The translations under genes and the position numbers were made by a program. A stretch of 64,000 nt of DNA from contig CM120649.1 in assembly GCA_051362555.1 (NCBI GenBank), positions 3,472,001 to 3,536,000 of the forward strand. The letters run 5' to 3'. Source of the DNA: Lingula anatina. Its lineage: Eukaryota > Animalia > Brachiopoda. This document shows, piece by piece, positions 7,214 through 40,185 of the stretch (position 1 is the first letter of the stretch; the number at the start of each line of letters is the position of its first letter). The notes under the pieces were generated by a model. It was not told the DNA's origin. It was given only the letters and a program-made list of their open reading frames with translations, and did no database searches.

Positions 7214-7407
7214 GTCCGACAGCTGATCCATGCTATGGCGAGCTCCGCAGCGAGAACGAAAACGTAAAACAAGAGAATAATCTACTCCGCAGTGAGAATG
7301 AAAACTTGAAAGCAGAGCTACAAGAAATGAGACAACAACTAGAAGATTCGAATGCGTTGATCAGGCAACAGAAGGCAGATATGCAGAAAGAAGTGACCTT
7401 TAACTAA
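7214..7407 (+). CDS. Gene A terminal coiled-coil exon (PTADPCYGELRSENENVKQENNLLRSENENLKAELQEMRQQLEDSNALIRQQKADMQKEVTFN*)
   Basis: aag|gt, phase 1; heptad-rich with an internal LRSENEN duplication; homologous to 36994-37166. Confidence 0.82.
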
Positions 7408-8156: not shown

Positions 8157-8766
8157 TAATACGTATCTGTCTGTATACATACAGGTAATGTACATGTAAT
8201 AAACATGTATATACGGTATTTACACCGTTGGTCCAAAACGTTAGGCATATTTTCCAGAAAATTAAACCCATAAAGTTATTTTACGAGCCAGGATTCATGG
8301 TTTATGTTTATTTTGATAACTTATGTGCTTATTGAAGGAATTCGGTGGGATTTGACAGTTTACTTAATACTATGAGATATTTATGTATGACACAAGTGCT
8401 GAAGGGGGTCTTTGATCAATTTATAAATAATGGTGTAAGAGATAAAAAAATCTCACTATTTAATAGGTTTGCTAGATATCAATACAGTTTAGTTTATAGT
8501 TTATTTCACTGTAACATATGCATCCACTTGTGTGGATGAAAATGGCAATATGAATACAATTTTTGTGAACATGCTATTAAACAATCACAATGAGTAATTT
8601 ACTTATTTACTAAAAAAACAGTACCTGTAGGTTATGAAAATGTCGTAAACATTGATAGCATGGTTTGCCCTTGGATATGAACCAGTTATAACAGGAGAAG
8701 CTGATGTATTTTCCCCTCGAAGCATGATAAAAGGCGCCACTGTTTCATACCTTGACAAAGGGTCAG

Positions 8767-9008
8767 GGTTCCGTAACTCGAAAGCATTGCGAATTGCGAC
8801 ACCATGTAATGTGATATCGCTATCGCAATATGCGATGCTTTCGAGTTACGGAGCCTATGCAGGGCCCCATAACTCGAAAGCATTGCGCATTGCGACTGAG
8901 CGCAAGCGTCTCGATTTCATAACCCGCCCATACTCGCCCCGTTAATACATTGTAGCCTCTATGTGATAATGTTATTTGCAATACGCGATGCTTTCGAGTT
9001 ACGGGGTC
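8767..9008. mobile_element. Tandem dimer of small palindromic MITEs (ccgtaactcgaaagcat...atgctttcgagttacgg)
   Basis: Interrupts the motif gacaaagggtcagatctg, which is intact near 9600, 40091 and 40712; flanked by CAG/TAG. Confidence 0.75.
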
Positions 9009-10871
9009 TAGGTCTGCAGACTTATTACCTCGGATTTCTCACAATACACTCATTTTTTATGAAAGAAGAACTGCACTGGTCGCATTTTTATTCTTGAGTA
9101 ATTGGAAATGATTTCGAGAAAGTTATCCGTTTTCTCTGGCATCTTTAGCAAATGGCAATTACGTTCAATCTCCTAAAACAGATTTTTTTGAAAACAGATG
9201 TCCGTCCGTAAGAAGCAGATCTACAGTACTTTGACAAGGTCCGTGAAGGAGTTCTTTTGGCAAACGTCACCCCTTATTTTAAGACCCAAGTAGGGACATA
9301 CATTTAGAATAACTGTTTGTGGTGATGGATATTGCAATGAATTTTAAAACAGCATAGTATATTCTAGTATATGCTCTTCAAAAGAGCTGAAAGTACACAC
9401 ACACACACACAAATAATTTTCATAATAATGATAACGCCCCCCCCCCCCCAACTTCATCGTAATTGCCTGTTTTAACACCGTAAACAGGTACCGGTAGGTT
9501 AAAAAATGTCGTAAACATTGATAACATTGAAGCCGCTATATACTTTCACCTGGAAACATGACAAAGGACGCCACTGGTTCTTTAAATAGATTATAATTGG
9601 ACAAAGGGTCAGATCTGAAGACTTGATTCGTCTCCGTCCGTCTGTTGTGATGATGTAGACATGTGTACCGGTAGTGATGATTTGAATCACACCAATAAAT
9701 GATTAAAGGAATGGAATTGGCAAAGAATAAAGGGGCCATTCAGAATGAGCAAATCCGAGTGCTAACTGGGGCACGACCTACATATGGCGGACCTACATGA
9801 AAGGAAGACCTCTACATCTTGTAATGGTCTCCCCGCCTCTCACACACCTCTCCAAACACTGTGCCCCTGCAGGGATCTTTAAAGGAATGTCAATATAATA
9901 GTATTCATGTATATGCTGAAAAGTAACATTTCACGCCTTTGACATTTTCATATAACAGCAAGTATTAATCTCTCAGTATTCAATTTTCTAACCCAATCTA
10001 AGAAAACGGGCAAATTGTTATTTTACCACTTAAATAATTTTACGAAAATGTATTACCGTGTTTATCCGTAATATATTCCAAGGTGAATGCTTATAGCTTT
10101 CCATTTAATTCAATTTTATTTTTGCTTATTTTTCTTCTATTTATTTTATTCAATTTCATTTCTCTTAATTGTTTCAAATTTTATTATTCTATTTTATTTT
10201 ATTTAACATGGCATATTATAAATATCTCATATATCAATAATCGATCACAATACGTTATCTAAGAAAACTATACATTGGTGTCCTACGGCTGCACAAAGAA
10301 GCAGCGGTGATAACATTAAATAAAACGTAATGTGACACCACAGCATTACTTCAGAGCAGAAAACCATCCATATTGAAATATAGCGAATCAATCAGTCTTT
10401 TGACATAATCTAAAACTTACTTGAAAATCCCGATAAAAAACCCCACCGTTCTCAAAACAAGGAAACGACGAAAAAAATCAAGTCTATTTTAACATCAGGA
10501 AAATGTTTGGTTCAATGGGTTTTCCCCTGTTACGTCATTCTTAACGAACCAGGAAGGTGAGTGGCACCTCAAAATTTTTCTTATATTTCAGATAATTATA
10601 TGATATGGCTCTGACCATAATGGTGGTTAAATTAATAACTTTATTTAATAGATATAAGGACAGGACTCGCAATGTTAATTGCAACACTATTTACTAACTA
10701 TATAAAGCTGTGATGAAATATATTAAGTTCGATCTTAGGCAAAACGGCGGCATACCGCGGTAGTGGATAAACACGCCAGTGAAAACTGGAAATGAAAACG
10801 ATAACAAGCTTATCTATCAATCAAACCATAAAGAGTTCTCTTTCAATGACTGTCTACATATGAACACATAA

Positions 10872-13526
10872 AGGCCGGGTCACACTGCGCTTGCGACCTT
10901 TTTGCAACCTTTTTGCAACCACAAAATCTGGCGGTCGCTTGCGATCACTTTGCAAGCTAATTAAGGAGCTGTGGCCAATTTTGATCAGCAAGCAGTCGCA
11001 AACCGGTTGCAACAAGCTAATTAAGGTTGCAGTATGGTATCTGCAGCCTCTTAAACCCCCTTTACACTGGACGGCGTCCTTTCTGCGTCCTTTGTGCGAC
11101 CATGAATCTGGCCAGGACGCCGTCGGACGCTCAAAGAACGCACAGTGATCGCCAAGGTCGCACAAAGAACGTTCAAGCATCGCCGAGGACGCCATGGACG
11201 CCGCGAAGTTTTGAGCATGTTCAAAACAATCGCAGAGAGAACGCGATGGAGGATGGTCGCTCAATGGACGCAGAAAGGACGCACAAGCATCGCCGTGGTC
11301 GCAGAGAGAACGCACAAGCACCGCCGAGGTCGCAGAGAGGACGCACAAGCATCGCCGCGGTCGTAGAAAGGAGGCACAAGCATCGCTTTGGTTGCAGAAT
11401 GAAAACTCAAAGATCGTCCAGTGTTCGACACGTAGAACGTTATTTTTTTTCACTCTCAAACGGGGCCGTGCTGAGGTATTTTTCACCAGACAGGAATTCT
11501 AATGGCAACAGTGGTCTCATATCAGTCTCCGATTGTTTTTTCCCCTAAAATTCATGAAACGATCCTTTTTTTTTTTTTGAGGTTATTATAAAACGAATAT
11601 TTTGCCTTTTTTACAAGATGCATTAATTGTCAGAACTTTTTGCTGAATGCTTCATTTGAAAACGGATTCAAGCATTCTATGTCGTGTCAGTCATACTTTC
11701 TCGTTTTCGGCGCCTGTCCATCCTTCTTATAAGGAAAACAATGAGCATCTGGCTGATTATCAGTCCATGCAGACCTTGCATCACTATAGTTTAAAGCGTT
11801 TATTCCCATTTATTTGTTTTGTGTGCTGGAAATGTTCTTTATTGGATGACCTGGTTAGAACCGATGAAAAAATATGAGTTAGAATATAGAGAAGGACGCC
11901 CAAACAACGCTCATCGGTCAAGCAGGATGCAGAATGATCGTAGAATGGACGCCACTGATCGCCGATGAAGGTACAGAGAACGCAGCAAGAATGCTCAATG
12001 GTCGCTCAAACATCGCAATGGATGCCTTGGGTTGCACAGGGGACGTACAGTGGAGGCAGGCAGGTTGCTCGCAGTTTTACAGGTAAAATCAAGATTCGGT
12101 CGTTCAAAGGACGCACAAGGGACGCAGACGCCTTTACACTGAGACACGATTTAATAGATTTGGCGACCGTTGAGCGTCCTGACCACATTTTTGAACGCAG
12201 AAGGGACGCAGAAAGGACGTCGTCCAGTGTAAAGGGGCCCTTATAGACCATCTTCAAGTTATAGGTTACCAGTCGCACACTGTTTGCCGAGCGATACACA
12301 ACCTGTCTGCAACCACTTGGTGACCGAAAACCGGTTGCAGGACTGTAGCAATCGCTTGTCAACTGGCAGCAGCAAGGTCGCACAGAATATATATGTTGCC
12401 AACTTGTGACAGTAGCTGCTTTCCCATAAATTCCCCTCTCAAAAGACAAAAAATGTTCTAGTAAAACGACTCCTTTTCAAAAAGACGGGACTGCTATAAT
12501 CATTGACTTTGTTTACCTAAGAAGTTAAACGAGTTAAAAAAACTCGAAAATACTGGGTGAACCCGTGGATTGCAAGACGTCCCTTGTAAGGCGATTACAA
12601 AGATTTGATGAAAGAACTTCCGACTTGAAAATTAGGAAGTTTTCATTTCCTTCCTAAAAATTGAACCAACAATGTTTTGTGAACTTTTGAAAAGGCTACA
12701 CCCTCACCTAACGAAACCAGTGCTGTAATAAAAAACATAAACTTGCATACGTTTTAATCCTATTAATCTCATAATGCTCTTTAATATTTTCTTGTTCAAA
12801 TACTTGGTCTTTGAGGTCGCAAGGCCTGTGCAGTAACGGTCACACTGGACAAAAAACCTCTTTGCGACTTGCAACTGTCACCGGTTGCAAAAAGGTCGGC
12901 GACCGGTTGCAACAACTCGCAAAGTGGTTTCCAAATGAACGCTGGGTTAATATCCAGTTGCGCCGGTTTTCGGTGCAGCACCGATAACCTCCTGGCGACC
13001 GAAAAACCTTCTTGTGGTATCCAACCGGTTACTAACAGGTCGCCGACTGCTTTGCAACTGATTTGCAACCGAATGTGTGGTTTTGCCTTTGTCTTTTTAA
13101 CCCTAGGCGTTTGGCACTTACAATACAACGTAATTAAATCGTGACAAGTCATGCGCATCGTGTACTTTTTACACTCCCATCCTTGTAGTGAGGATACCAA
13201 GCACTGGGAAGATGTTAAATTGTTTGTGTTGAAACTATTTTTATTTAAGTCTATTGGACACATTTTACGATTTGTTCAATTATTTGTGGATAATTTTGAT
13301 TGTTGAAATTATGATATTAAGTAGCAGTTATACCTTGCTGATTAAATTGCTTTTATTTTTCGTTTTCTCTGCATTCGTGTATTTGTTTCATTGTTTACTC
13401 TGATAATATGGCTTTGCAAATTTTAATTAACATACAGCGATATATTATTAAGGTTTTCGGCATTTTACCTATGATTTTCGCAAAATGATAAAATAAATAA
13501 ACGTAGCGTCAAAAAATCGTACATTG

Positions 13527-13579
<53 letters not shown>

Positions 13580-14228
13580 GTTTCGTAAGTGTGAAATACC
13601 TGCTATATGAAAGCCTTGGCAATTGGTATAAAATATTGCCAACAAATGCAATTTATGTTTTCTTTTTCTAAAACATTATAATTTACTACCTTGATATTTA
13701 GAAGGCTTACATAACAAATTATGAAAAAGTATTTGCCCAAATAGACCACCATTCTACGCCTATTTTATTGCAGTCGCTTGCAACCTTCCTGCGACATATT
13801 TTCGAACGCCTGCGATCGGTAAAAAACCTGTTAGCGACCAAGATACTAAAGACCGTCAATCGACCATGCAGTTACAACTGCAACCTTCTGGCGACCTGCT
13901 GCCGACTACTTGCTACTGGTAAAAAACTTGTAAGCGACCAGTCGAATAAATACGGTCAATCGACCGTGCAGTTGCAAATGGTATGCTACTGGTTATAGCA
14001 ACCTACTGACAACCAAGAAGAGACCGATAGGCAACCTTTAGGATACCGATAATTTTCATCTTTAGTCGCACTGGTTGTCGGTGCACAAAAAATGGCCTTC
14101 ATGTGTCAACGATCGCAGGCGACCTGTTAACAACCTTATGCGACCACTTTAAAACCTATGGCAACCTCCTTGCGACTGAGGTTGCAAAGAGGTTGCCAAA
14201 AGGTTGCAAGCGCAGTGTGACTCAGGCT
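10872..14228. mobile_element. Non-autonomous DNA transposon, PIF/Harbinger-like (TAA target duplication)
   Basis: taa|aggccgggtcacactgcgcttgcgacc ... ggttgcaagcgcagtgtgactcaggct|taa; many internal gtcgc/ttgcaac motifs; no transposase ORF. Confidence 0.8.
11054..12240. mobile_element. Second Harbinger-like non-autonomous element nested in the first (TTA duplication)
   Basis: tta|aaccccctttacactggacggcgtcctttctgcgtcc ... ggacgcagaaaggacgtcgtccagtgtaaaggggccc|tta; internal acgcacaagcatcgcc repeats. Confidence 0.82.
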
Positions 14229-14231
14229 TAA

Positions 14232-16591: not shown

Positions 16592-16741
16592 ATGGCTGCA
16601 TATCGTTCATTCAATGCCACGTTCAAGAACAGTCTCCAAAAAGCTGCAGAGATCGGAGATATCGAAACAGTGCGTCAACTGCTAGAAAGTAAAATATGCG
16701 ATGCCAACGAGAGGACAGACACAGTTGGATTGGGCTTACTT
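16592..16741 (+). CDS. Gene B first coding exon, N-cap ankyrin (MAAYRSFNATFKNSLQKAAEIGDIETVRQLLESKICDANERTDTVGLGLL)
   Basis: L..AA..GD.E.VR.LL N-cap pattern; donor gtaagc at 16742; no signal peptide. Confidence 0.8.
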
Positions 16742-17743
16742 GTAAGCATTGCCAAAAATGAACATGCAAAGCATATTTAGAATTTGCTACTCATATGAAT
16801 AAAAAGGAATTTGAGAATAGTTGATAGTAGTTACACAGTAACATGACTCGCAAACAGTGTACAGAATAGGTACAGCACGGAACTGATCCCTACAGTGAGA
16901 ACGAAGTAAGTATATTTTCTTGTAAATATAAATGTGTGGTGCTTGAAATATACATGTACCTGCTCTTCCTTAGTTTGCTTGCGCTACACAAGCAGTTTTT
17001 AATTGTTTAAAATGCATTTTCGTTCTTGAACAAGTGGGTTTTTAATATTATCATTGATACTTGTGTAAACCGATTCTGGCATGTAATTAATACTTCATAC
17101 TTAAAAATAATCTCAAGTTGAGAAATCAAAATAATCTTAATTGAAAGTCCGGTCCTTAAATCCGTGTATCAAATCATTCGTGAATTATCAAAATAAACCA
17201 CTTAAAAGTTCGTTTTGATACATTAATTGCTGAAAATATTTTTAAAAATAAAACCCGAAGACCAAAGAACTCATACAGAGGTGGAAATTTAAACGTGTTT
17301 TCTTAACAGACGTCTCAGATGTGGCTTGGGCTTAATTGGAATAAAAGTAGTGTTCCCTCATTGAGGCACTGTTGTTTAAAGATGGAAATAGTTTTGATAC
17401 ATTCGATTTACAGTGCACCCCGTTTTGTAATGATCCATTAACATGTGATAAAATACCTTTGGTCGGGGATGTCATTTCATCGAAAAATTTATGTATCTTC
17501 AGGATTGCCAGACTCCTCTTCATTACGCTGCTAGTGGTGGCCACAGCGATGTAGATCAAAGTTGTATTTTTAGGACATAAAGCACACTTATCTTTAAAAA
17601 ATCTAAAAAGTTTTAGTATTATATCTACCTTACACACGGTCTTCATGGAATATTAACAGATAAACGTTAGCAGTCTTCCCTTCAACAACGCATTGTATTA
17701 CATCTACATGTAAATTATCTCCCGTACCTGCTGTTGCGGCAGT

Positions 17744-17788
<45 letters not shown>

Positions 17789-20700
17789 ATGACGAAAAAA
17801 GTTTTGATTCATTCAGTTTACAGTGCACCCTTATTTGTATTGTCCACTTACACGGTATACAATATGTCTGTCTGGTGCGTCACCTCTATGATAACATTTT
17901 GTAGGTACCGGTTGACAGGACGCCTCTTCATTACGCTGCTACGGGTGGTCACTGCGATATAGCGGCTCTCCTCATCCAGCACGGAGCTGATCCCTGCAGA
18001 GTGACCTGGGTAGGTATTTGTGTGGTCATTGGTCTCTCTTCGTTACATACGTAGAAATCAAATATGTTTTATGTATTTTTGCATTAACATATAATGTGCT
18101 TTTAAATATTATTATTGATACGTGAATAAACCAATTGGGGTATGTAATTAATCTTTAATATTCTAAAATTATCTCAAATGTAGAAATCAAAAGAAACTTA
18201 ATTTGAGGTCCGGTCCTTAAATCCGTATATCGAATCATTTGTGAATTTTCAAATTGAAGAACTGTACAGTTGGATGTAACACTTAAATTGCTGAAAATAA
18301 ATTGCTGGTATGTCACTTCACTGAAAGCAGTGTGTTTTCTTAGGATGGCCAGACACCTCTTCATTTCGCTGCTACTGCTGGCCACTGCGATATAGCAGCA
18401 TTCCTCATCCAGCACGGAGCTGATCCCTGCAGAGTGACCTGGGTAGGTATATGTGTGGTACTTGGAATATACCACCCCTTCATTGGTCTCTCTTCGTTAC
18501 ATACGTAGTAATCAAATGTATTTTATGTATTTTTGCATTAACATATTATGTGCTTTTAAATATTATTATTAATACGTGAATAAACCAATTGGGGTATGTA
18601 ATTAATCTTTAATATTCTAAAATAATCTCAAATTGAGAAATCAAAAGAAACTTAATTTGAGGTCCGGTCCTTAAATCCGTATATCGAATCATTTGTGAAT
18701 TTTCAAATTGAAAAACTGTACAGTTAGATTTATCACTTAAATTGCTGAAAATATTCCTTAAAAGATGTAACCCGAAAACCAAAGAAGCCGTACAAAGGAG
18801 GAAATTTGAAATGCATATGAGTTTTAAGAAAGACACTTCAGATGTCTTTGAAATAACTAAAAACCTAATATTTTCCCAACATTAGACACGGCGTTACTGG
18901 ATTATTAACGGATAAACGTTAGCAGACTTTCCTTCAATAGCACAATATTATAAATATCAACATGTAAATAAATCCCCTTTACCTAGTTTTTCATCTCTTT
19001 GAGGCAATATTGTTTAAATATGAAAATAGTTTTGATTCGTTCAATTTACAGTGCACCAATTTATTATAATGCTCCATTTACATGTCATTAAATACCTGTC
19101 TGTCTGGTATGTCACTTCATTGAAAGCAGTGTGTTTTCTTAGGATGGCCAGACACCTCTTCATTTCGCTGCTACTGCTGGCCACTGCGACATAGCGGCTC
19201 TCCTCATCCAGCACGGAGCTGATCCCTCCGGTGCAAACAAGGTATGTACATGTGTGGTACTTGAAATATATGCCGCCTCTTCATTAGTCTGTCTTTGTTA
19301 TATACATATTAATTGAATATCTTTATTGCATTTTTGTTTACGAAAATGCAGTAGTATCGAAGCAGTATCGAAGCATCAACGCAGTAGTGGTGTGGAGCAT
19401 ATTTTCAGTAGAAATAGCCTACTACAATTCTACTCCAAAAAGAACATATGTCTACTCCAAAAAGAACATATACAGAGACGAGCATTAATGCAGTAGATTA
19501 GCAGCATGATAGAAGCATGTTTCAAATATGCTAATTAGATACCATATCGAAGCAGATTTGAAGCATGTTTGCAGTATGATTGCAGTAGTCTACTGCGCTG
19601 GAGTATCTACTGCGTTTTCGTGCTCATGAGCTGTAATATTTTTATGTATTATTATTGATACGTGTGTAAACCGATTGTGTCATGTAATTAATCTTTAATA
19701 TTTATAATAATATCAAATTAAGAACAGAAAAAATCTAGTCCGGTCCTTTCATCCGTTTGTCAAAACATTTCTGAATTTCTATGAAATGCTCAAAATCTTC
19801 CTTGAAAATGTTAACCGAAAACTATAGAACAAAGTTGGAAATCTGAAATACATGTATGCTTTATGACAGACACCTCAGGTGTTTTTGAAATAATGATAAC
19901 TAAAAACTGTTAATATTTTTCCAACATTACACACGGTCTTAATATTAATGGAATATTTTAACGGATAAACATAAGCAGTCTTCCCTTTAACAACACATTA
20001 GTGTTGTTGGTGTAGGCTTCATGAAAATCATCTCCCTTACCTGCTGCTGTGTACTAATATGTCATCTTTTTGAGGCACTGTTGTTTAAAGATGATAATAG
20101 TTTTGATTCTTTCAATTTTGAGTGCACCCCGTTTTATAATAAGCCATTTACATTGCGTGAAATATCGTAATATATTATAATGGATGGGTGTATAAACCAA
20201 ATGTGACACATATGTTATCAATATTAATACGATATAACCTCAAATAAAAAAAAGAAATCAAAAGAATCTTAATTCAAAGTCCAGACCATAAGTTTGTTTA
20301 TCAAAAAAATTGTGAATTTTAAAAATTGAGGTACTGTTGTTTGAAGTGGAAAATAATTTTGATTCATTCAGTTTACAGTGCACCCCGTTTTATAGTGATT
20401 TATTTGCATGATATTGTATATCTTCAGGGGGGTCAGACGCCCCTTCATAGCGCTGCTTTTGGTGGTCACAGTGATGTAGCAGCTCTTCTCATTCAGCACG
20501 GAGCTGATCCCAGCAGGTACAGTGTGGTAGGTATACCGTACTTGTAGTACTTGAAGTAAACCATCCCTTCACTGTTCTCTCTTTGTTATATACGTAGTGA
20601 TTGAATATATTTAATGTATTTTCGGTATGTAATTAATCTTTAATACTTTATAATAATCTCAGTTTGAGGAAGTGAAATAATCTTATCTCAAGGTTCAGTC

Positions 20701-23700
20701 CTTAAATTCGATTATCAAATTAATTGTGAATTTTCAAAATAAAGAACTATACAGTTTAATTCAAGGCTTTTAATTGCTGAAAATCGTCCTTGAAGATATA
20801 ACCAGAAAACAAAAGAAGTCGTGCAAAGGTGTAAACCAAAAATGCATTACACACGCTCTTAATATTTATAAAACATTAACGGATAAACATAAGCAGTCTT
20901 CCCTGAAGAAACACATTAGTATTGTTCATGTAGCTTCATGTACTTCATCCCCTTACCTGCTGCTCTGTACTAATATGTCATCTCTTTGAGGGACTGTTGT
21001 TTAGAGATGACAATAGTTTTGATTCGTTCAATTTAGAGTGCACCCCGTTTTATAATAATTCATTCTGATACTTACGTCATTTCATTGAAAAAATTGTTCA
21101 TTTTCAGGATGCTCGGAGTCCTCTTTTTGACGCTGCTATGGGTGGTCACTGCGATGTAGTAACTCTCCTCATCCAGCACGGAGCTGATCCCTGCAGTATG
21201 AACTGGGTAGGTACGTGTGGTAATTGGTGAAATCGTCTCTTAAATGACTACGTCTTGGGTTGGCTCCATTCAAGTAGCTGTGACCTGGTGCATGGATACG
21301 AGCTGTCTTTGTTATATACGCAGTAATTGGATATCTTTATTGTATTTTCGTACATGAGTATACGTTTTTATGATTATTATTAGTGATACGTGTATAAACC
21401 GCTTTTGCCATGTAATTATTTTTAAACATTTATAATAATCTCAAATTTAGAAATTAAAATAATCTAGTGCGGTCCTTTGTTCCACTTATCAAAACAATTG
21501 AGAATTTTTAAAATCAAGAACTATAAGTTCGTTGTTATACTATTAACTGCTGAAAATCTTCCTTGAAAATGTTACTGAAAGCCAAAGGACTCGTACAAAC
21601 ATATGCATGTGTGTTTTATGACAGACACCTCAGATGCCTTTGATTATAATAATAATTCATTTACATGGCATGATATATTAATTTTTTGTTTGTCTGGTAT
21701 GTCAGTTCATTGACAACATTGTGCATCTTCAGATGAGAGTGACGCCTCTTCATGACGCCGCTATGGGAGGTCACCGCGATGTAGCAGCTCTTCTCATTCA
21801 GCACGGAGCTGATCCTTGCAGTGAGGACTGGGTAGGTATATGTATGGTACTAGAAATAAATAATTTGTATTATTATCGATTTATGTATAAACCGGATGTG
21901 GCGTGTAATTTTTACTTAATATGCCACAATGACCTCAAATTGAGAAATCAAAAGAATCTTAATTCAAAGGGGTAATAACTCTTCGTGTGACGAAGCTGTT
22001 GGCTTGTCTTCTTCATGTTACGCGAGGTAGCAAATACAACTCAGATATTATCTTTTTTATTATTTATTGAACTACTGTCCAGTTATTACCCGCGCCGCTT
22101 CCTTCATTTCTATTCCTACCTCATACAATCTCTAGCGGCCTTCTCTCTGTTTACACTAAGCGTAGTTGTATAAATACCATAAGAGCATGTCAATCAACCT
22201 AAGTTACTCTACTAAACACTCCCCGCTCTTATTCACTGCATGCTGTCACTTACTAACGTTCCATTCGTATAATTGAGATCTATATTTCACAATAAAAACA
22301 TTGTGAACAACTCATAGAAATACAAAATGTTCTGTTGTACTGCAAAAAGGACAGTTATGGGGAAAGGAGACAAGATGGCGTAGAGGATGACACGAACTCT
22401 AGGACACGGGACATAAATTGGTCTTTCTTGACATAGACAAGTGAACACAACGTCTGATGTGGTACATTCTGAACAAGTGTACATCCGTGAACGAGCTGAT
22501 CGGGTGGAGAAAGCACAAATAAGGTGAATAACTGATATTTTTTAACCTCATCACATAGACATAGTCTGCGCGAACGTCGCATAGTGGATGATACACACTG
22601 ACTACATTAAATTTCACGCAGTGCTGTCAACCTTTCAGCATGTCATCCAAACACACAAAAAACACTAAAAAGGGTGAGCCTACACCCAAACGTACGCACA
22701 GCGAAGTCTCCAATACAAGTGCTGAAGAAAATAGCAGCATTATCTTAGCGGAACTAGAAGAAATAAAATCTTATATGAAAGACATGATAAACAAAGACGA
22801 ACTGAAAGAACTAGTAACCACCTTAGTTACAGAAATGTTAAAAGAAATGAAAAAAGAAATGGGTTCACAAATCAACAATATGCGAGAGAAATTAGACTTC
22901 CTGGAATTTGAAAATAAAAACCTTACAGAAAACATTGCAAGGAAAGACAAAGATTTACTTAAATTGAAAGAGGAGATAAAAGATTGAGGCGGACAAACGA
23001 TCAAACTACAACGAACAGTATTCACGTAAGAACAATATTAAAATCTACGGGATAAAGGAAGAGACAAAGGAGAACACCAAGTCCGTCGTACGCGACACAT
23101 TGAAGGAAGTAGCACAGATAACACTCCGGGATGATGACATTCTAGCAGTACATCGTATACCTGGGGCAAAAACACAACAACCGAGACCTATAATTTTACG
23201 AGTGAATAACACGGAGACAAAAGCTAAATTCATGAGGTGCAGAAGGGCAATGAAAACCTCGAGGCAAAACTTGAGACTGGCAGATGACGTCACAAAAAAG
23301 AACGCGCAACTTATCCAGCGCCTCGTTAACCACCCTGAAATTGATCAAGCATGGTACTTTAATGGGTCAGTTTATGGTCGGCCGAAAGACAGCACAAAAA
23401 GGGTGAAATTTGACCTGCACGATGATATTAATTTAAAGATAAGAAACGCTTGAGCATGAACTTTATTCCTCCTTTTTCCATTTTCCTCTTGCTTTAATTT
23501 TGCACATAAAACCAATTGTCGCACAAAACTGAACGCTCTCCCATGTACGTTTTCTTATATGTAGTATATTGTGTGAGTGTATGTTTGTGTTTAAATGAGG
23601 TGAGTAAGTGGATAATGGCCGTGCGTAAGACTGAGATTGTGTGCGAAAGTAAAAGTGTGCACGTGATACATGTCTGTTTGTCAAGCGATGAAAAGAATGG

Positions 23701-26700
23701 TGAGGCTCATTGTCGTACATACATGTATATCAACGAAAACGTTATGTCTGTCAATACATTAAAATGCTATTATGAGTTTTGATTTTAGTATATTATCCTT
23801 AAATGTCCGGGGGCTAAATAATTTTAAGAAAAGAAAGGGAGTATTTAGGTGGTTACATAAAAGGCCTGAAAATGTTTTCCTCCTACAAGAAACCTACAGC
23901 TCGCAGAAAGTCGAAAAATTATGGCGCGCTCAGTGGGGTGGAAAGGTTTGGTATAATCATGGTACTGGGCATAGCAAAGGGGTGATGATTTTATTTAAAA
24001 ATAACATAGAATATGACATTATAGACACAGTTACAGACCCGGATGGTCGTCTTTTAGGCGTGAAAATTAAAATTGGTACGAGCACTTTTCTTATGTGAAA
24101 TATATATGCCCCAAATCAAATAAATGAACAAGTTGAATTTTATAGATTTCTCTATAAAGCACTAGCTAAATATGAATCTGATTATGTAATTATAGGGGGT
24201 GACTTCAACTGCACATTGTCCAAGCTAGATAAACATGGTGGACTGTCCACACACATTAAAGATAAAGTTATACATGAAATACAAACTATTATGGAAAAAT
24301 ATCATTTAAATGACACATGGAGAAAGTTCCATGGTGCAGAAAGAAGATACACATGGAAAAACTCCGAATCAAACATCTCCTGCAGACTAGACTACTGGAT
24401 AACATCTAACGAACTTATAGAAAATTGTTTTATAGAAAAGGCGGAGATATTGTACGCACCTTACACTGATCATGATGCAATATCTTTGTTTTTAAAGACA
24501 AAAGATGTGACAGTTAGAGGGCGAGGGTTTTGGAAACACAATAATACTCTACTAGGAGACGAAAGATATATTAACGAAATGAAAACTGTAATTAATGAAG
24601 CAAAAAACAGATACAATTACTTAGAGGACCGTGGTTTAGCATTTGATATGATAACAATGGAAATACGGCAGTTTTCAATAAAATTTTCAAAGCAAAAATC
24701 TAAACAACATAGAGAAAATGAAAGAGACATTTGGAAAAAAATCAACGTGCTACAAGCCGAGATAGACAATCAATTTAATAAAGAAAAAGCTAAAGAATTA
24801 GAAAAACTTAAGACTGAACATGATTTAATCTTAGAAGCTAAAACTGAAGGTGCAATAATGCGTAGTAAAGTGAGATGGTACGAAAAGGGCGAACGCAATA
24901 CAAATTACTTTATCAACTTGGAAAAACGGAATCGAGTCAGAAATACAATAACAAAACTAGAAATTAATGATACACTAACAGTAACTAACGATAAAGATAT
25001 TCTACAAGAACAGGGAAAGTTTTACGAAAATTTGTACACCTCACAGAACACTACCATTAACGAGAGAATCTCAAACAAATTTTTCAATGTACAAAATATA
25101 CCCCAAATTCCAAACGACCTAAAAATCGCATGTGAAGGAAAGCTAACCATCAACGAGTGCAAAAACGCACTCAAAGAACTTACAAAAAAGAAGAAGAAAA
25201 CCCCGGGTGTTGATGGGCTCTCCGCAGAATTTTACATGAAATTCTGGGAAGAATTAGGAGAGGAAATTGCAGACTGTTTAAATTTTGCTTTTGAAACTGG
25301 TCAGTTAAATATTAGCCAACGACAGGGCATAATAACACTAATTCCCAAAAAAGACAAGGATAGACACCGTTTGGAAAACTGGCGACCTATTTCTTTGCTA
25401 AGCGTAAGCTACAAAATAGCCGCAAAGGCACTTGCAAAACGAATGGAAACGACTTTACCAACCATTATCAACAAAAACCAAACCGGGTACGTTAAAAAAA
25501 GATATATCGGTGAAAATATAAGACTCATCTGGGATCTTATGTACTCAACAAAAAGGCAAAATAAAGAAGGGATGGCGATTTTCTTAGATTTTAAAAAAGC
25601 GTTCGATTGCATTGAATGGGAATTTATAAAAAAATGCCTGAAAATATTTAACTTTGGCCCTGACTTCATTCAGTGGTTTGACATTATGTACGCCAATGCT
25701 TTCAGTTGTATTACAAACAACGGATATTCCTCGCGATTCTTTTCAATTACAAGAGGTGTAAGACAAGGGTGCCCACTGTCCGGCCCTCTATTCGTGCTGG
25801 CCGTAGAAATACTAGCCTGCGCAATACGCGCAGATCCATCCATACGGGGAATCACTATTGATCGTCATGAACACAAATTATGCCAATATGCCGACGATAC
25901 AACGCTATTTCTAAATGATGTTAGGTCCGCTAAAAACGCATTGAAATTAATATCTGAATTCAAACAAAGTTCTGGTTTAGAACTAAACTTGAGCAAGTCC
26001 GAAGCCCTGTGGCTTGGAAGTAATAGATTCAACAACGAAAAGCCCCTCGGGTTGCTATGGCCAGATAGACCAATAAAAGCTCTCGGAATTCATTTCTCTT
26101 ATGATTACGAAAGCTGTAGGTTTCTAGACTTCGATGGTAAAGTTGATCAAATTGAAAGCTGCTTAACCTTTGGTCCAGCAGAGACCTCACATGGATTGGA
26201 AAGATACAAATACTAAAAACATTGGGTCTGGCTAAACTGGTTTATGCTAATACAGTTCTTGAGACCCCAAATGATATTATTTTGAGGATAGATGCTTTAT
26301 TCAAAAAATTTCTATGGAATGATAAAAAACCAAATTTAAAGCAGAATACATTAATAGCCCCAAAGAGTAAAGGTGGTTTAAATTTGACGCATGTGCCATC
26401 GCACGTGCGGTCTCTGAAGGCCTCAATGGTTAAGCGCATAATGTTAGCTGACAACGATGATCCGTGGGTAATAAACATACTGAAATATTTAAGAAGTGTG
26501 GGAGGAAAACTCATTTTCAGTTGTAATTATGAACTTAAGAATATTAACATTTCGGACATGCCACCTTTTACGTAGCCATGCTAGATGCATGGAGTGATTT
26601 AATACAAACAGACCCTAATAATGCCTCCGATATAAAGAAACAGATAATATGGAATAATAGATTCATACTTGTAAACAAAAAGTCAATATATCTAAGGCAT

Positions 26701-29700
26701 TGGTCAAAAGCCGGAGTTAATTATATTCAAGATATCATAAATATTAATGGTGAATTTATATCATTAGAAGAAATAATAAATCAACACAACTTCGATATTA
26801 AGCTACCGAATTTTCTAGAATACGAAAAAGTAAAAAAATCAATTCCGATATTATGGTTACGTAAACTTCGGGAAAATGCAGAATCAGTTGACAACACAGA
26901 CTCAGATGAGATAGTATGGACTCTTGCCTCTACAAAAAACATTTACGATAAGCTAATAGAAAGAAATGTAATAAATTTACCCACAGCAAGTTTGCATCTT
27001 ATCAAATCAGGCATAAGTGAAAATGATTGGCAGAGAGTTTTCTTGATACCATTTGAGTCTGTCAAAGAAACTCAACTACAAGTAATGCAATACAGAATAA
27101 TTCACAATGTGCTGTACACAAATTCTACACTGTTCAAAATGAAAATAGTTACTAGCCCAGGATGTACTAACTGCCATATGAAAGAAACAATAATACATCG
27201 TTTTGTGGAATGTGTACGTGCAAGAAATTTTTGGATTGTATTTGAAAACTGTTGGAACATTCCGAATAATACCATACACTTCAGAAAAAATGAAAAAACT
27301 ATAATGTACGGGTGTCTGTCAAGCGACCAGCGCGTAAAAGCTTTAAATTTCTGTATTATTGTGGCTAAACAATTCATAAACAAAAATTCAGAAAATCCAT
27401 CAGTCTATGATTTTGAACTGTTTCTGCATTTTCTTAGCCAGAAGAAGAAAATAGAAAAATACATTGCTATAAAGACAGGAAAAGAAGATAGGTTTAATAC
27501 AAAATGGAAACGCATTCCTACCATAACGTGTTAAAATTTTCACCTCTAGTACGCTATAGTTGCCGTTATGTAGTTCACAACAAGCATGTATACGTGTAGT
27601 ATGTATGGATGGATGAGTGAGTGAAAGTATGTCTATATATTTATGTTCTTTTTTATTTTTCAGTATTTAATTACCGTAATTGCCATCAGTATTATATGCA
27701 TTTAATCTTTGATTATCTGTCTAAACATTTCATTAAATATGTTATAGTTGCCGATATGTAGCTCACGCGTAGTATGCATGGATGGATGAGTGAGTGAGAG
27801 TATTTCTATATATTTACGCTCTTTTTATTTATCTATTAGTATTTAATTACCGTAATTATCATCAGCTTTGTTTTACATGCATTCAATCTTTGATTATCTG
27901 TTTAAATATTTCATTATATATGTATATTTTCTTTTTTTTTTTTCTTTGAGTGAATAAACGCATTAAAAAAAATAAATAAAAAAAATAAAAAAAGGACAGT
28001 TATAGCTGTTATTCTGATATCTGAGCTTGTCTTTAAACCAAGTGACCTCCATTGATAGCTATACTTAAGAGATTATAACAAAAAGACTTTTTAGAAAAAT
28101 AAAAACATGGGCTAACTTTGAATGTAAAAATGGATTCATTAACCATTGGTAATTATGGGGAAATCGTTGTTTACTCCAGTATTTTTTTTCCAAAACGAAG
28201 AGTTATTATCCCTTTAATTAAAATATTAAATCAATATGTTTGAAAAAGATAAGTTGTGGTTCTTTTAGGAGGTGTCAATAAAGTTCGGATGAATAACTAA
28301 AATAGTCCCATTTACACCCAATTATGAAAAGGATAAATAATGGTATTATCATACTAATGTTGATGCTCTGTTGTACTGTTATTCTTAACGCAATGGCCAT
28401 TGAATAAAACGTGTTGAATAAATCAGTTTCTTTGGTTTTAGTTCGGCTTGAAGCCCAGTGATCTTGCACAGGAAGCTGGTTATGATGTTCTATGCTTGCT
28501 GTTAAGGAAATTTGAAAGTGATCAAATCCGGGTAGGCTAACGCACAGCATACAATTAAGTATATAACATTAAATATAATAATGGTTATGTAACATCATTA
28601 AATCGACACATATCGTAAATTAATATTTGTATTTGTCTTGCTAACCATTTGAATTGGTAGGTTCGTTTGGGCGTTTAATACTGCATGTGTAACCATACGA
28701 CCTACATGTAACCGCCTTGACTGCCATCCAACGGGTCTAAAACCTCACTGGCTTAGAACATTTCTGTAATATGGATGATATTACAAGGCTTTATTTCTAA
28801 TATCAATCCAATTTTTTGTCTTATCATCTAGTGAGGGCACACCTAGTCAATCCCATTTATATCCCGCTAAAATAATTATGCTTCCTTCAGATTGATCCGG
28901 TTCCTTTTAATTGTGATATATGTATTAAGAAATAAAGTCATTATCCACGGTCCGAGGTTGTGTATTCTGGGAAGAATTAGGAGAGGAAATTGCAGACTGT
29001 TTAAATTTTGCTTTTGAAACTGGTCAGTTAAATATTAGCCAACGACAGGGCATAATAACACTAATTCCCAAAAAAGACAAGGATAGACACCGTTTGGAAA
29101 ACTGGCGACCTATTTCTTTGCTAAGCGTAAGCTACAAAATAGCCGCAAAGGCACTTGCAAAACGAATGGAAACGACTTTACCAACCATTATCAACAAAAA
29201 CCAAACCGGGTACGTTAAAAAAAGATATATCGGTGAAAATATAAGACTCATCTGGGATCTTATGTACTCAACAAAAAGGCAAAATAAAGAAGGGATGGCG
29301 ATTTTCTTAGATTTTAAAAAAGCGTTCGATTGCATTGAATGGGAATTTATAAAAAAATGCCTGAAAATATTTAACTTTGGCCCTGACTTCATTCAGTGGT
29401 TTGACATTATGTACGCCAATGCTTTCAGTTGTATTACAAACAACGGATATTCCTCGCGATTCTTTTCAATTACAAGAGGTGTAAGACAAGGGTGCCCACT
29501 GTCCGGCCCTCTATTCGTGCTGGCCGTAGAAATACTAGCCTGCGCAATACGCGCAGATCCATCCATACGGGGAATCACTATTGATCGTCATGAACACAAA
29601 TTATGCCAATATGCCGACGATACAACGCTATTTCTAAATGATGTTAGGTCCGCTAAAAACGCATTGAAATTAATATCTGAATTCAAACAAAGTTCTGGTT

Positions 29701-32700
29701 TAGAACTAAACTTGAGCAAGTCCGAAGCCCTGTGGCTTGGAAGTAATAGATTCAACAACGAAAAGCCCCTCGGGTTGCTATGGCCAGATAGACCAATAAA
29801 AGCTCTCGGAATTCATTTCTCTTATGATTACGAAAGCTGTAGGTTTCTAGACTTCGATGGTAAAGTTGATCAAATTGAAAGCTGCTTAACCTTTGGTCCA
29901 GCAGAGACCTCACATGGATTGGAAAGATACAAATACTAAAAACATTGGGTCTGGCTAAACTGGTTTATGCTAATACAGTTCTTGAGACCCCAAATGATAT
30001 TATTTTGAGGATAGATGCTTTATTCAAAAAATTTCTATGGAATGATAAAAAACCAAATTTAAAGCAGAATACATTAATAGCCCCAAAGAGTAAAGGTGGT
30101 TTAAATTTGACGCATGTGCCATCGCACGTGCGGTCTCTGAAGGCCTCAATGGTTAAGCGCATAATGTTAGCTGACAACGATGATCCGTGGGTAATAAACA
30201 TACTGAAATATTTAAGAAGTGTGGGAGGAAAACTCATTTTCAGTTGTAATTATGAACTTAAGAATATTAACATTTCGGACATGCCACCTTTTACGTAGCC
30301 ATGCTAGATGCATGGAGTGATTTAATACAAACAGACCCTAATAATGCCTCCGATATAAAGAAACAGATAATATGGAATAATAGATTCATACTTGTAAACA
30401 AAAAGTCAATATATCTAAGGCATTGGTCAAAAGCCGGAGTTAATTATATTCAAGATATCATAAATATTAATGGTGAATTTATATCATTAGAAGAAATAAT
30501 AAATCAACACAACTTCGATATTAAGCTACCGAATTTTCTAGAATACGAAAAAGTAAAAAAATCAATTCCGATATTATGGTTACGTAAACTTCGGGAAAAT
30601 GCAGAATCAGTTGACAACACAGACTCAGATGAGATAGTATGGACTCTTGCCTCTACAAAAAACATTTACGATAAGCTAATAGAAAGAAATGTAATAAATT
30701 TACCCACAGCAAGTTTGCATCTTATCAAATCAGGCATAAGTGAAAATGATTGGCAGAGAGTTTTCTTGATACCATTTGAGTCTGTCAAAGAAACTCAACT
30801 ACAAGTAATGCAATACAGAATAATTCACAATGTGCTGTACACAAATTCTACACTGTTCAAAATGAAAATAGTTACTAGCCCAGGATGTACTAACTGCCAT
30901 ATGAAAGAAACAATAATACATCGTTTTGTGGAATGTGTACGTGCAAGAAATTTTTGGATTGTATTTGAAAACTGTTGGAACATTCCGAATAATACCATAC
31001 ACTTCAGAAAAAATGAAAAAACTATAATGTACGGGTGTCTGTCAAGCGACCAGCGCGTAAAAGCTTTAAATTTCTGTATTATTGTGGCTAAACAATTCAT
31101 AAACAAAAATTCAGAAAATCCATCAGTCTATGATTTTGAACTGTTTCTGCATTTTCTTAGCCAGAAGAAGAAAATAGAAAAATACATTGCTATAAAGACA
31201 GGAAAAGAAGATAGGTTTAATACAAAATGGAAACGCATTCCTACCATAACGTGTTAAAATTTTCACCTCTAGTACGCTATAGTTGCCGTTATGTAGTTCA
31301 CAACAAGCATGTATACGTGTAGTATGTATGGATGGATGAGTGAGTGAAAGTATGTCTATATATTTATGTTCTTTTTTATTTTTCAGTATTTAATTACCGT
31401 AATTGCCATCAGTATTATATGCATTTAATCTTTGATTATCTGTCTAAACATTTCATTAAATATGTTATAGTTGCCGATATGTAGCTCACGCGTAGTATGC
31501 ATGGATGGATGAGTGAGTGAGAGTATTTCTATATATTTACGCTCTTTTTATTTATCTATTAGTATTTAATTACCGTAATTATCATCAGCTTTGTTTTACA
31601 TGCATTCAATCTTTGATTATCTGTTTAAATATTTCATTATATATGTATATTTTCTTTTTTTTTTTCTTTGAGTGAATAAACGCATTAAAAAAAATAAATA
31701 AAAAAAATAAAAAAAGGACAGTTATAGCTGTTATTCTGATATCTGAGCTTGTCTTTAAACCAAGTGACCTCCATTGATAGCTATACTTAAGAGATTATAA
31801 CAAAAAGACTTTTTAGAAAAATAAAAACATGGGCTAACTTTGAATGTAAAAATGGATTCATTAACCATTGGTAATTATGGGGAAATCGTTGTTTACTCCA
31901 GTATTTTTTTTCCAAAACGAAGAGTTATTATCCCTTTAATTAAAATATTAAATCAATATGTTTGAAAAAGATAAGTTGTGGTTCTTTTAGGAGGTGTCAA
32001 TAAAGTTCGGATGAATAACTAAAATAGTCCCATTTACACCCAATTATGAAAAGGATAAATAATGGTATTATCATACTAATGTTGATGCTCTGTTGTACTG
32101 TTATTCTTAACGCAATGGCCATTGAATAAAACGTGTTGAATAAATCAGTTTCTTTGGTTTTAGTTCGGCTTGAAGCCCAGTGATCTTGCACAGGAAGCTG
32201 GTTATGATGTTCTATGCTTGCTGTTAAGGAAATTTGAAAGTGATCAAATCCGGGTAGGCTAACGCACAGCATACAATTAAGTATATAACATTAAATATAA
32301 TAATGGTTATGTAACATCATTAAATCGACACATATCGTAAATTAATATTTGTATTTGTCTTGCTAACCATTTGAATTGGTAGGTTCGTTTGGGCGTTTAA
32401 TACTGCATGTGTAACCATACGACCTACATGTAACCGCCTTGACTGCCATCCAACGGGTCTAAAACCTCACTGGCTTAGAACATTTCTGTAATATGGATGA
32501 TATTACAAGGCTTTATTTCTAATATCAATCCAATTTTTTGTCTTATCATCTAGTGAGGGCACACCTAGTCAATCCCATTTATATCCCGCTAAAATAATTA
32601 TGCTTCCTTCAGATTGATCCGGTTCCTTTTAATTGTGATATATGTATTAAGAAATAAAGTCATTATCCACGGTCCGAGGTTGTGTATTCCGAGGCATTTT

Positions 32701-35700
32701 TCAAGACATTAATAAAAAAACAATTCAAAGAAATAAATAAGCAAATGTTTGACGTTTATAAGACAAAAATTATGCAACATTTTGTTTTTTCAGAAATTCA
32801 TGATAACTAGGACGTTGGAGCATGTCTCTGCCGAGATGAGCCTTGATGACTTTTTTCTGCCCACCGATAGGATTATTAATATTTTTCCTGTTGAAGTTCA
32901 AAAGCAAAAAATGCAGCGGTTGAAAAAATGGGCACATTCAAAAAAATTCAAAACTATTCAAGGAATAAAAGCTGGACTTACAGCTCAAGGACGAGAGAAG
33001 CTTTGTGGTGAGTTTACTCTGAATAAATACAAATTATGTATGAATAACTTTGCGACTTTGTCTTCTTTTTTGTTTGTTCTGTGAATCTTATTTCAATGTT
33101 TTGAACGGTATTTCAGCAATTATTTATATATTCAAACACCGACTGTGCTTATTTCGATACTCCGTTACGCTGGCATGTTTATGGTCATCAGAGTAATATT
33201 GTACCTAAAGAAAAGTTTAGTTTATATATAACTAGTTCTTTTTCTTCCGCCAACTACATATTTATCTTGTTAATTTTTGACAGTAAAAGCGCTGTTGGTG
33301 GACGTGGGGTTCTTCATTATAATGACTCGACATGTAAACGCAATAAAAACTTCCAATTATATTTCAGTTATTGCTGCAGAACGTTATGCTAACGTTGCCA
33401 AGGTGATCACAGATATGTCTTGGAAACGATACGAAAGTCTCCGTGAAGATCTTTCAACAGCCCAGTTTATGTTCCAAGAGCTTCCAATACCTGCGTTAGA
33501 AGCACAGAGCCAGGAAATCAGGTATGCTATAAACCATACTTAGCATTTAATATGTTCCACATTTCTACAGCAGAGAAGAATTTTGGCGTATGTGATATAC
33601 ATCTCTCACATCTGAGAGTAAGTAAGTCTTCATGAAATATTTATAGCGGGTAAGTTCATATCTTACAAGCGAATACTGAAGTAAAAAAAACTGGCCAACC
33701 TCAGCTGTGACACTTATTATTTCATTAAAACTTATTTTATTACCCTAGCATGGAGCATGAATCCTTCCAATATGATGCGTTCCTGATTCACAGCGGTGAG
33801 GATAAACCTAAAGTCGAAGAAGTTTTGGAGCTGCTCGAGTCACGTGATATCCGTTGTTGTTATGCACCACGTGATTTCCTACCCGGAAGAAGCATATTAT
33901 CTTGCATAGAAGACGCCGTGGAATTGTCCAGGTGTACTGTAGTCATGGTGTCTGAGAACTTTATGAAAAGCACGTGGTGCCAGCATGAACGAGATGTGGC
34001 CGAGGTCAAGGCAAAAGACACGGAAGGTTATTCGGTGATCCCTGTTCTTTTGGGCTTCAAACCGTCAGATCTGCCAAGTGCTTACAAAGTCAAAAAGTTT
34101 ATCCTTGCTGATAGCCAAGATTTTATTCCCACATTGGTCAAAGCTATTGAAGGTATTTTTCTCTCTAGAAGTCTTTATCTCATGGGTTTTATTTCCCTAC
34201 ATTATTAATTGAAACAGCAACTAAACAAATCAAACTTTGTTAACGCTAAAATGCTGCAATGCTTCTATTGAGGGGCCTCTTGTACTAGAAATGCACCATG
34301 TTCCATAATTTACCACCTGACTATCATTCTAATAACGATGCGCGCGTTATACGTCACAGGTCTTGCATAACTACCCACGTGCTACGATTTTTCCCTTGGG
34401 GGGGCAACAAGCGGCCATTTTGTACAGGAGCAATGCATAGATGGGTGAAAACGATACGTTGTTTTTAACCGAAAACGATGTCCCCGGGATGAAACTGCCA
34501 ACACCAAAAGTAAAGGAGAATACCAACGTTGTTTTGAAACGATGTGGTTAGCCTGTCAGTGGCGAGTTGGGGAGAAAAGAGCAGCACTGATTGCAAGGTA
34601 CTGTTTACACGTGAACCGGCAAAGTTAATGATAATTTCATGTTGCAAAAGCAAAATTAAATCAGTTAGTTATTTTCCAAACGATATTATTTGAATAGCAG
34701 ATACATAGATCAAACTAACAACAATAAAATTTTTGATGACATTGATTGAAACCTGCGGTGCACGATAGGTTGAGGAGGACACTGCCACAGCAAGTAATGC
34801 ATGAATTTTGTTACATAACACCGTATGCTTGTGTCATTGTTAACTCTGCGGTATTATTACTCAATTTACTGCTTAAATTAATACCTGATACTATTTCTCA
34901 GGCTACCAAGTACAAATCACCTTATTTTGTGGCAGTTGACCTCCATGTTCCATCTTGTGTGCAGGTTGTTTATTATTATTTTCATTATTATTATTATTAT
35001 TTGTTCAAGCCCATTTTGATAAAGTGGCTATGCTTTAACAAGAGAAATTTATGCTAAGTTTAAAAGATTAAATCATCAGTAGTATATACAATTAAAGCTA
35101 TTTGATTATGCATTATTTGATTTTCAATTATCTTGATTATGATATGAGGTTTCTGCCTTTTTCTCTTGCCCTCAAATCAATATCTAACAAGTAAATTGAT
35201 AGTGCTTTATTACAATTTTTGCTTTATACTTTCAGATGTAAAAACTGTGTAGCAGTTGGTAAAGCTGTAGAGATTGATGTGAGCATAGATCAGGGGAAAT
35301 GGTATTAGAGAAACCAGGAGGACAAGACATAGATAATGTACTAGTAGATCCATCATCACAGCAAGGATAGATGGTGTGATCTTGTCCCTGAAGCTGTGCC
35401 TCAAGTTTTCAACAGGTTGAGTCCTTACTAAGACAAGCTGCTGCGGTGTGAATTGCAATATGTACATTCAGGTTATACGTGGCAGATTTATGACAAAAGA
35501 GACCTTCACAATATACTTCAAAGGAGTTATTCTTGCATCTATGCCTCATCAAAAGTACACAGTTACAGTGACTAGAACATTGTTTGCAAATAGTGAAGCA
35601 GTGGAGGCTGCAAAGTGCCATTGTTTTTCAGTATTAAGAATGACAGTATCTGTTTTTTTATTTATTTTTATTTTTCATTTTTAATGGGAAGGAGACTCAT

Positions 35701-40140: not shown

Positions 40141-40185
<45 letters not shown>

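Follow-up and report, generated by a model that had tools for sequence, protein, structure and literature searches.

We analysed a window of 64,000 nucleotides from the brachiopod Lingula anatina (contig CM120649.1 of assembly GCA_051362555.1, positions 3,472,001 to 3,536,000), which carries two tandem genes, A and B, on the + strand. The two genes share a common plan, namely a series of ankyrin repeats, each encoded by one 99-nt phase-0 exon, followed by a helical region, a TIR domain and a coil. Both are probably members of a Lingula family of ankyrin-TIR proteins, likely cytosolic immune sensors, the predicted groove of which was likely diversified by positive selection in the germline. An immune role is plausible because a TIR domain, left unnamed in the preliminary description of this stretch, is attached to the repeats.

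Eleven ankyrin exons start in the window, all on the + strand: four in gene A, the start of which lies to the left of the window edge, and seven in gene B. Nine of them are full phase-0 units of 33 codons (99 nt) ending in GT, and an AG is found directly 5' of codon 1 in eight of these nine. The full exons of gene A are A1 to A3 (234-332, 751-849 and 1255-1353), and those of gene B are B2 (17905-18009, with the repeat starting at 17911), B3 (18344-18442), B4 (19143-19241; 99 nt, phase 0, PF00023 E 2.6e-10), B5 (20428-20526), B6 (21108-21206) and B7 (21733-21831). The sole acceptor AG of B2 lies 6 nt upstream of the usual place, which adds two in-frame residues. The two other exons, A4 (1902-1949) and B1 (17503-17553), end early, after 16 and 17 codons respectively; the cut-off junction of A4 is also present in contigs of DNA runs X1 and X6. 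Assignment to the ankyrin class, a 33-residue helix-turn-helix-hairpin repeat with the TPLH motif, rests on a PF00023 score of 40.4 bits against a cut-off of 21.1. Repeat exons of 99 nt are found in the ankyrin genes of vertebrates, too.

The preliminary description had listed short motifs that differ from repeat to repeat, and we recovered all of them in place across the 11 exons. Four need qualification: DGG and DCQ belong to A4 (from 1902) and B1 (from 17503), which are not whole repeats; VDR lies in B2, where no AG stands in the normal place and the nearest is 6 nt upstream; and DAR precedes SPLF rather than TPLH. Codons 15, 17 and 29, absent from that list, are variable as well (1.3-1.7 bits). 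Variation is concentrated at hairpin and first-helix codons, while the second helix is nearly fixed. Seven of the ten variable codons are found at exon edges; codons 8 and 11 vary within the conserved core, between fixed neighbours. The third base is invariant at codons 3 and 8, each of which encodes five different residues.

When the repeats are aligned to designed ankyrin repeat proteins (DARPins), exon codon n corresponds to DARPin position n+2. Each intron splits the hairpin, falling between DARPin positions 2 and 3, as the preliminary description had proposed for the exon junctions. We take the classic randomised set of DARPins to be numbered 2, 3, 5, 13, 14 and 33. In the nine full exons, mean entropy reaches 2.22 bits at these six positions versus 0.61 bits at the other 27, and only 12 of the 1,107,568 possible six-position sets reach 2.22 bits. 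Six randomised positions are also what the accessible part of PMC9611651 gives for the classic library. According to the accessible part of PMC3308923, a later library also randomised position 10, the residue that follows TPLH, on the grounds that it faces the binding surface, positions 21, 22 and 25 are on the opposite face, and position 33 is described as not directly in the binding surface. Faces were assigned by alignment and from such published DARPin papers; on this basis, including the library positions in that part of PMC3308923, the variable codons do map to the concave face, as had been claimed. The site pattern is a real feature. The match to DARPins announced by the preliminary description covers most of the sites that it listed, but codons 2, 8, 30 and 32, among its ten, are fixed in the classic scheme.

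To what extent is such a pattern specific to these genes? Our comparison set comprises the 65 of 149 other proteins that carry nine or more distinct regular repeats; they are the proteins ranking highest against P0002, a Lingula protein in which 11 ankyrin repeats are combined with a TIR domain, and they include P0109, a third full-length family member from Lingula found by profile search. These 65 proteins average 2.01 bits at the six DARPin positions, and the entropy profiles of the window and of the comparison proteins are correlated (rho 0.66). The match to DARPin positions is therefore ordinary by itself, as unrelated ankyrin proteins vary at these positions too, and the special likeness suggested earlier, real as a pattern, is an overlap expected for any ankyrin array. 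The back face (DARPin positions 18, 21, 22, 25 and 26, a set fixed after the entropy table of the window had been seen) gives a different picture, with 0.38 bits in the window versus 1.60 in the comparison proteins. The groove-minus-back contrast amounts to 1.73 bits for the nine window repeats, which pool two genes, and is reached by none of the 65 comparison proteins (mean 0.42, sd 0.33); in the 18 most self-similar of these, the groove has 1.42 bits and the back 0.71. The same positions vary in P0002 (rho 0.62, with nine of its 11 repeats used) and in P0109 (1.94 vs 0.59 bits). Six long proteins with highly self-similar ankyrin arrays (P0015, P0017, P0007, P0127, P0092 and P0101) are likewise more variable in the groove than on the back; as P0015 comes under the name of an abalone, Haliotis rufescens, similar arrays may occur in molluscs.

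An excess of amino-acid change at the variable codons emerged from codon models on the nine full exons (GY94, in our own implementation and not PAML). The ratio of nonsynonymous to synonymous rates (omega) is 8.4-23.6 at the six DARPin codons versus 0.8-1.05 elsewhere (p < 1e-10), a range that covers three trees, one of them a star, and two frequency models. For gene B alone, omega is 3.1 at the six codons (p 0.002), or 4.8 if the mosaic exon B3 is omitted (p 0.0002), and about 0.6 at the non-DARPin codons. A site model blind to position (M2a vs M1a, p 2.7e-7) places an omega of 5.7 on 25% of sites. The sites that it picks above 0.95 are codons 1, 3, 8, 11, 31 and 33, that is, DARPin positions 3, 5, 10, 13, 33 and 2, or five of the six classic positions plus position 10. 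In addition, A1 and A2 differ at six of the 12 first and second positions of the six codons, compared with 26 of 367 positions in the flanking intron (Fisher p 1.5e-4).

Gains and losses of repeats have left traces as well. B3 is a mosaic, B4-like in its 5' half and B2-like in its 3' half: an unbroken run of 24 informative sites agrees with B4, and 11 of the following 12 agree with B2, an arrangement obtained in none of 100,000 permutations. The introns flanking B3 are copies of each other (15 of 334 bases differ). A mosaic exon between copied introns is the mark of an unequal crossover, here one in which the core of B4 was joined to that of B2 and which added one repeat. The corresponding test gave no sign of a mosaic among A1-A3 (p 0.33). 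The unit copied in the B3 event spans mid-exon to mid-exon, and the hairpins B2|B3 and B3|B4 read alike. The preliminary description had proposed that new binding loops arise by exon re-ordering; in the sole rearrangement that can be traced, the crossover is mid-exon and the hairpin was duplicated unchanged, so that the B3 event is the opposite of loop-making by re-ordering. Losses by deletion are illustrated by the two cut-off exons among the 11 (A4 and B1) and by one remnant in gene B, the 3' third of an ankyrin exon at 16870-16905 on the + strand (nhmmer E 8e-10).

We aligned contigs of four DNA runs to 17790-21960, and omitted from the count run X1, which may itself be the source. Among the 32 of 1,556 contig pieces listed, 24 come from X3, X5 and X6; they carry 51 differences, 44 of which could be placed and seven could not. 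One of the placed differences is in a repeat (B2 codon 1, in X3), one is in the 6-nt extension of B2, and the rest are intronic. The pieces cover 80 combinations of variable codon and sample, with a single listed difference for these three samples, which comes close to the invariant haplotype that the preliminary description had named as the outcome that would speak against it. In X5, all 19 differences in the pieces listed are placed and intronic, with none in 347 exonic bases. Thus, the variation lies between repeats and paralogues, and there is little of it between sampled alleles. Overlapping pieces fit the order B5-B6-B7, but they break in the shared exon cores; no repeat-number polymorphism was found among the pieces listed for the three other samples, the short-read contigs of which break in these same cores. 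B2 is the only exon with a coding difference among the pieces listed, and at 17905/17911 run X3 shows a divergent allele or a close paralogue of this exon, with one gap and 10 differences over 193 bases. Contig depth is raised over the exon cores, a hint at many related exons rather than a copy number. Two DNA joints (21732>17912 and 17940>21935) were considered as rearrangements and are read instead as A3 and A4 sequence cross-placed on gene B.

Transcripts were sought in four RNA runs, of which 6-25% of each was read. Appreciable depth on ankyrin exons was found only in X17, the reads of which are almost unanimously different at diagnostic sites (57 of 58 reads carry other letters at 21792, and 30 of 30 at 17964). 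These expressed relatives, with consecutive repeats spliced together, are paralogues of gene B. Their sequences part from that of the window at codons 10-12 as well as in the hairpin, and both RNA and DNA records of the relatives break from the window at the variable codons. Back-going or skipping RNA joints were rejected as splice evidence: the reads are 90-95% alike to the window, and their hairpin letters match no window exon, which indicates paralogue transcripts placed on the best-fitting exon.

The rest of gene B completes the ankyrin-TIR plan. Its first coding exon (16592-16741, +, phase 0) encodes 50 codons of an N-cap-like repeat, with 49% identity to residues 1-41 of P0002. After B7 come a C-cap exon (32164-32253, +), two exons for the helical middle region (32794-33007 and 33368-33521, +), an intact TIR exon (33749-34152, +; TIR_2 E 7.7e-19) and a last exon with a predicted coil and the stop (36994-37167, +). 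Twelve exons joined in this way, leaving out the 16870 remnant and the shortened exon at 17503, have GT-AG at 11 of 11 junctions and form 594 codons free of internal stops and frameshifts. In gene A, also on the + strand, we found a cap exon (2776-2865), a helical exon (4627-4840), a frameshifted TIR exon (5721-6098) and a coil exon (7214-7402).

The TIR domain of gene B meets the TIR/TIR_2 profile cut-offs and has the TIR fold. Positions 33750-34151 show 100% identity with LOC106150873 of Lingula anatina (P0001), and the domain is 80% identical to that of P0002. P0002 and P0109 both have the whole architecture of gene B; in structure models, the ankyrin array of P0002 has a predicted local distance difference test (pLDDT) score of about 90, its long C-terminal helix is of low confidence, and no membrane segment is evident. 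The closest TIR relatives are TLR1/2, MAL, MyD88 and oyster TIR-STING, and the structure also matches Hydra TRR-2 (Z 18.4, root-mean-square deviation 1.8, 122 aligned). The helix-C Glu is present (WCQHE) but is not diagnostic of an NADase, as TLR2 has Glu at the aligned place; the TLR2 TIR is not known to have NADase activity. No Pfam match to NACHT or NB-ARC was detected in P0001, P0002 or the middle exons of gene B, nor in the precomputed domains of P0109. The middle region, of about 120 residues with five predicted helices and no Pfam family, was considered as a death domain such as MyD88-like adaptors have N-terminal to the TIR, an assignment that we did not make; it has no Pfam death-domain match, and the fold searches were filled by the TIR. 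Searches for homologues of middle region plus TIR returned only Lingula proteins and two weak TLR matches; as word-based searches starting from P0002 missed even P0109, absence from other animals is weakly tested. Public annotation hides the family, calling its members 'ankyrin-3', 'PP6 regulatory subunit B-like' and the like.

These features can be assembled into a putative mechanism. Repeats would multiply by crossover between near-identical exon cores and shared intron flanks. As the copied unit would comprise helix 2, the intron, the hairpin and helix 1, the binding-surface unit would move intact. Selection against changing foreign ligands would then favour, in bursts, point changes at some six codons of the groove. 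Ligand binding in the groove may cluster the proteins via the coil and the helical region, and clustering may in turn nucleate TIR assembly and Toll-like signalling. The result would be a birth-and-death family, with a repertoire that changes over generations and is spread across paralogous genes instead of splice forms of one gene.

Several results weigh against these genes being functional sensors with a selected groove. Positive selection on concave-face codons holds under models with a constant synonymous rate and is not robust to a free local rate: once groove codons are allowed a total rate of their own, a model with omega fixed at 1 is rejected (p < 0.05) in only two of eight tests, and in none of the four for gene B alone. 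Simple counting at the six codons gives proportions of nonsynonymous and synonymous differences (pN and pS) of 0.57 and 0.46, compared with a framework pS of about 0.2, and the data set is small (33 codons in nine recombining, non-tree-like sequences). On the statistics, a local excess of mutation may thus have produced the signal. Moreover, the 18 groove bases duplicated with B3 have not changed since, so that selection has not been steady; this fits a diversification that is episodic, or a later homogenisation of neighbouring repeats. Gene A is broken and likely a pseudogene: its TIR exon is frameshifted, no second helical exon was found within the window and its joined frame, counted from its first codon inside the window, hits a stop at codon 213. 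Finally, an insertion of about 6 kb separates the array of gene B from its TIR exons, the public gene model P0001 has no ankyrin exons, and none of the RNA reads from the portions examined could be assigned to gene B.

The strongest rival, which we regard as doubtful, dispenses with positive selection: young, partly homogenised repeats would drift at tolerant surface positions, with conversion or splicing constraint acting on the core, and a local mutation excess. It would account for the variability of generic ankyrin arrays at these same positions, for a hot-spot null that is mostly not rejected, for the location of most variable codons at exon edges and for the state of gene A, the inclusion of which raises omega at the other codons to about 1. 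It accommodates less readily the back face, which is tolerant in other ankyrins and nearly fixed here. Within this rival, a steady four- to sevenfold mutation rate should have left changes in the B3 duplicate, and none is seen (probability of no change at the 18 bases 0.03 for a fourfold rate and 0.001 for a sevenfold rate, versus 0.44 under neutrality). As third bases never change at codons 3 and 8 and codons 8 and 11 vary inside the conserved core between fixed codons, the sequences lead us to favour selection over a hot spot.

It is unlikely that both genes are relics, the signal dating from an earlier functional phase and the intronic insertions having since silenced gene B or separated its array from its TIR half. 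The broken gene A, the two cut-off exons, the remnant and the altered acceptor of B2 agree with such decay, as do the lack of RNA reads at least 95% alike tied to gene B exons and the public models that begin the TIR half from a retrotransposon-derived piece. Against it, gene B retains its 594 open codons and canonical splice sites, an omega of about 0.6 at non-DARPin codons and exons free of differences among the pieces listed for X5, and the RNA runs were read only in small part.

We find it quite unlikely that this brachiopod has evolved a natural DARPin repertoire, a family of cytosolic ankyrin-TIR receptors in which germline tuning of the groove positions that are randomised by engineers is combined with an infection-triggered, in-frame skipping of hairpin-splitting exons, multiplying specificities per gene. 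Least probable of all is a splice or somatic library, with phase-0 exons skipped or re-ordered into many binding loops per gene: any skip of a full 99-nt exon would keep the frame and alter a hairpin, a full protein could be made only by skipping B1 and A4, and ROCO genes show splice variants of their leucine-rich repeats (LRRs) in the accessible part of PMC11378527, but no RNA joint in the portions read is assignable to gene B, the reads carrying other letters almost throughout, six usable exons in fixed order allow at most 64 subsets, the traceable DNA rearrangement kept the hairpin, and other samples share the variable codons.

The intronic insertion that interrupts gene B (21965-28218, strand unassigned) has 21-bp inverted ends and is itself interrupted by an L1-type retrotransposon (about 22359-27990) encoding ORF1, an endonuclease and a reverse transcriptase (RVT_1 E 6e-37). 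The retrotransposon has a target-site repeat of 15 nt, and its coding sequence contains two frame shifts as well as a stop at 24098. P0152, an older public model, reads through the first of these shifts and is fused to the cap exon of gene B; the insertion is thus also present in the reference animal, and the annotation was misled by it. RNA reads joining 21986 to about 22275 come from abundant copies of the element elsewhere that lack a 290-bp inner piece. A tandem duplication of 3.7 kb (25241-28967 / 28964-32689) takes in the cap exon, an identical copy of which is thus found at 28442-28531, together with the retrotransposon's 3' half; the two units differ by one base, and the duplication probably either arose in the assembly or is very recent. 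In the B4-B5 intron, 19330-19625 is a high-copy insertion, also transcribed, with a contig depth thousands of times that of its flanks. Between the two genes, the GC-richer stretch 10890-14230, each end of which carries tandem units of 11 and 31 bp, is probably a transposon. Related non-coding sequence (about 70%) is found downstream of both genes, at 8616-9731 and 39162-40839, which indicates that the A/B duplication extended past the coding exons.

Returning to the reading of A and B as members of a selected ankyrin-TIR family, its closest parallels would be, by analogy, fungal ankyrin NOD-like receptors (NLRs) for its way of working and brown-algal ROCO genes for its construction, with Lingula as an animal case. 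In fungal NLRs, selection on the concave face of ankyrin repeats is described by Dyrka et al. 2014 (PMC4986451). The ankyrin NLRs with high internal conservation (HiC) of their repeats (for example Podospora Pa_3_8560; PMC4986451 and PMC13449251, in their accessible parts) resemble the Lingula genes in their near-identical repeat frameworks and attached signalling domain, in their positively selected inner-helix and hairpin sites and in repeat gain by unequal crossover. Unlike them, the Lingula genes have no detected NACHT or NB-ARC, have their repeats in separate exons and show no repeat-number polymorphism among the listed pieces of the samples. In addition, the HiC definition asks for repeats that are at least 85% identical over 100 residues, and the Lingula repeats fall below this cut-off, with a mean pairwise amino-acid identity of 63% (69-87 of 99 nucleotides). 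The brown-algal ROCO LRR genes and NB-ARC genes with tetratricopeptide repeats (TPRs) are known here from the accessible parts of Zambounis et al. 2012 (PMC3341825) and Teng et al. 2024 (PMC11378527). They share with the Lingula genes one repeat per same-phase exon, exon duplication and loss, truncated repeat exons and positively selected concave-face sites, and an immune role is inferred in both. They differ in that the Lingula genes have ankyrin instead of LRR or TPR, TIR instead of ROC-COR or NB-ARC, and an animal host; splice variants are reported for ROCO in PMC11378527, and the crossover traced in Lingula lies inside exons.

As in DARPins, the framework of 33 residues is fixed and variation occurs at positions 2, 3, 5, 13, 14 and 33, plus 10; in these natural repeats, positions 1, 4, 17, 31 and 32 are variable as well, and Cys, Gly and Pro occur at variable sites. 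The overlap is expected because DARPin positions were chosen from natural non-conserved residues, a design reportedly due to Binz et al. 2003. A further parallel is with the cytosolic TIR adaptors and sensors (MyD88, MAL/TIRAP, oyster TIR-STING and SARM1), as the TIR fold is closest to the TLR/MAL/MyD88 group and no membrane segment is evident in the models; unlike these proteins, the Lingula proteins have an N-terminal ankyrin array and a middle helical region that has no Pfam family. In the literature searches made, we found no published description of a Lingula ankyrin-TIR family, and nothing on it in the accessible parts of PMC8195603, PMC5094078, PMC6321704 and PMC1266365; the survey of Lingula immunity by Gerdol et al. 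2018 may list the architecture.

Public annotation misses the ankyrin half of gene B. On the reading that we prefer, these genes would be an animal case of the pattern described in fungi and brown algae, in which the scaffold is fixed, the groove is diversified and an immune signalling domain is attached, here in proteins lacking the NLR ATPase switch. If ligands are found, they would establish ankyrins as variable pattern-recognition modules in an invertebrate, and would provide naturally selected residue choices for the DARPin surface.

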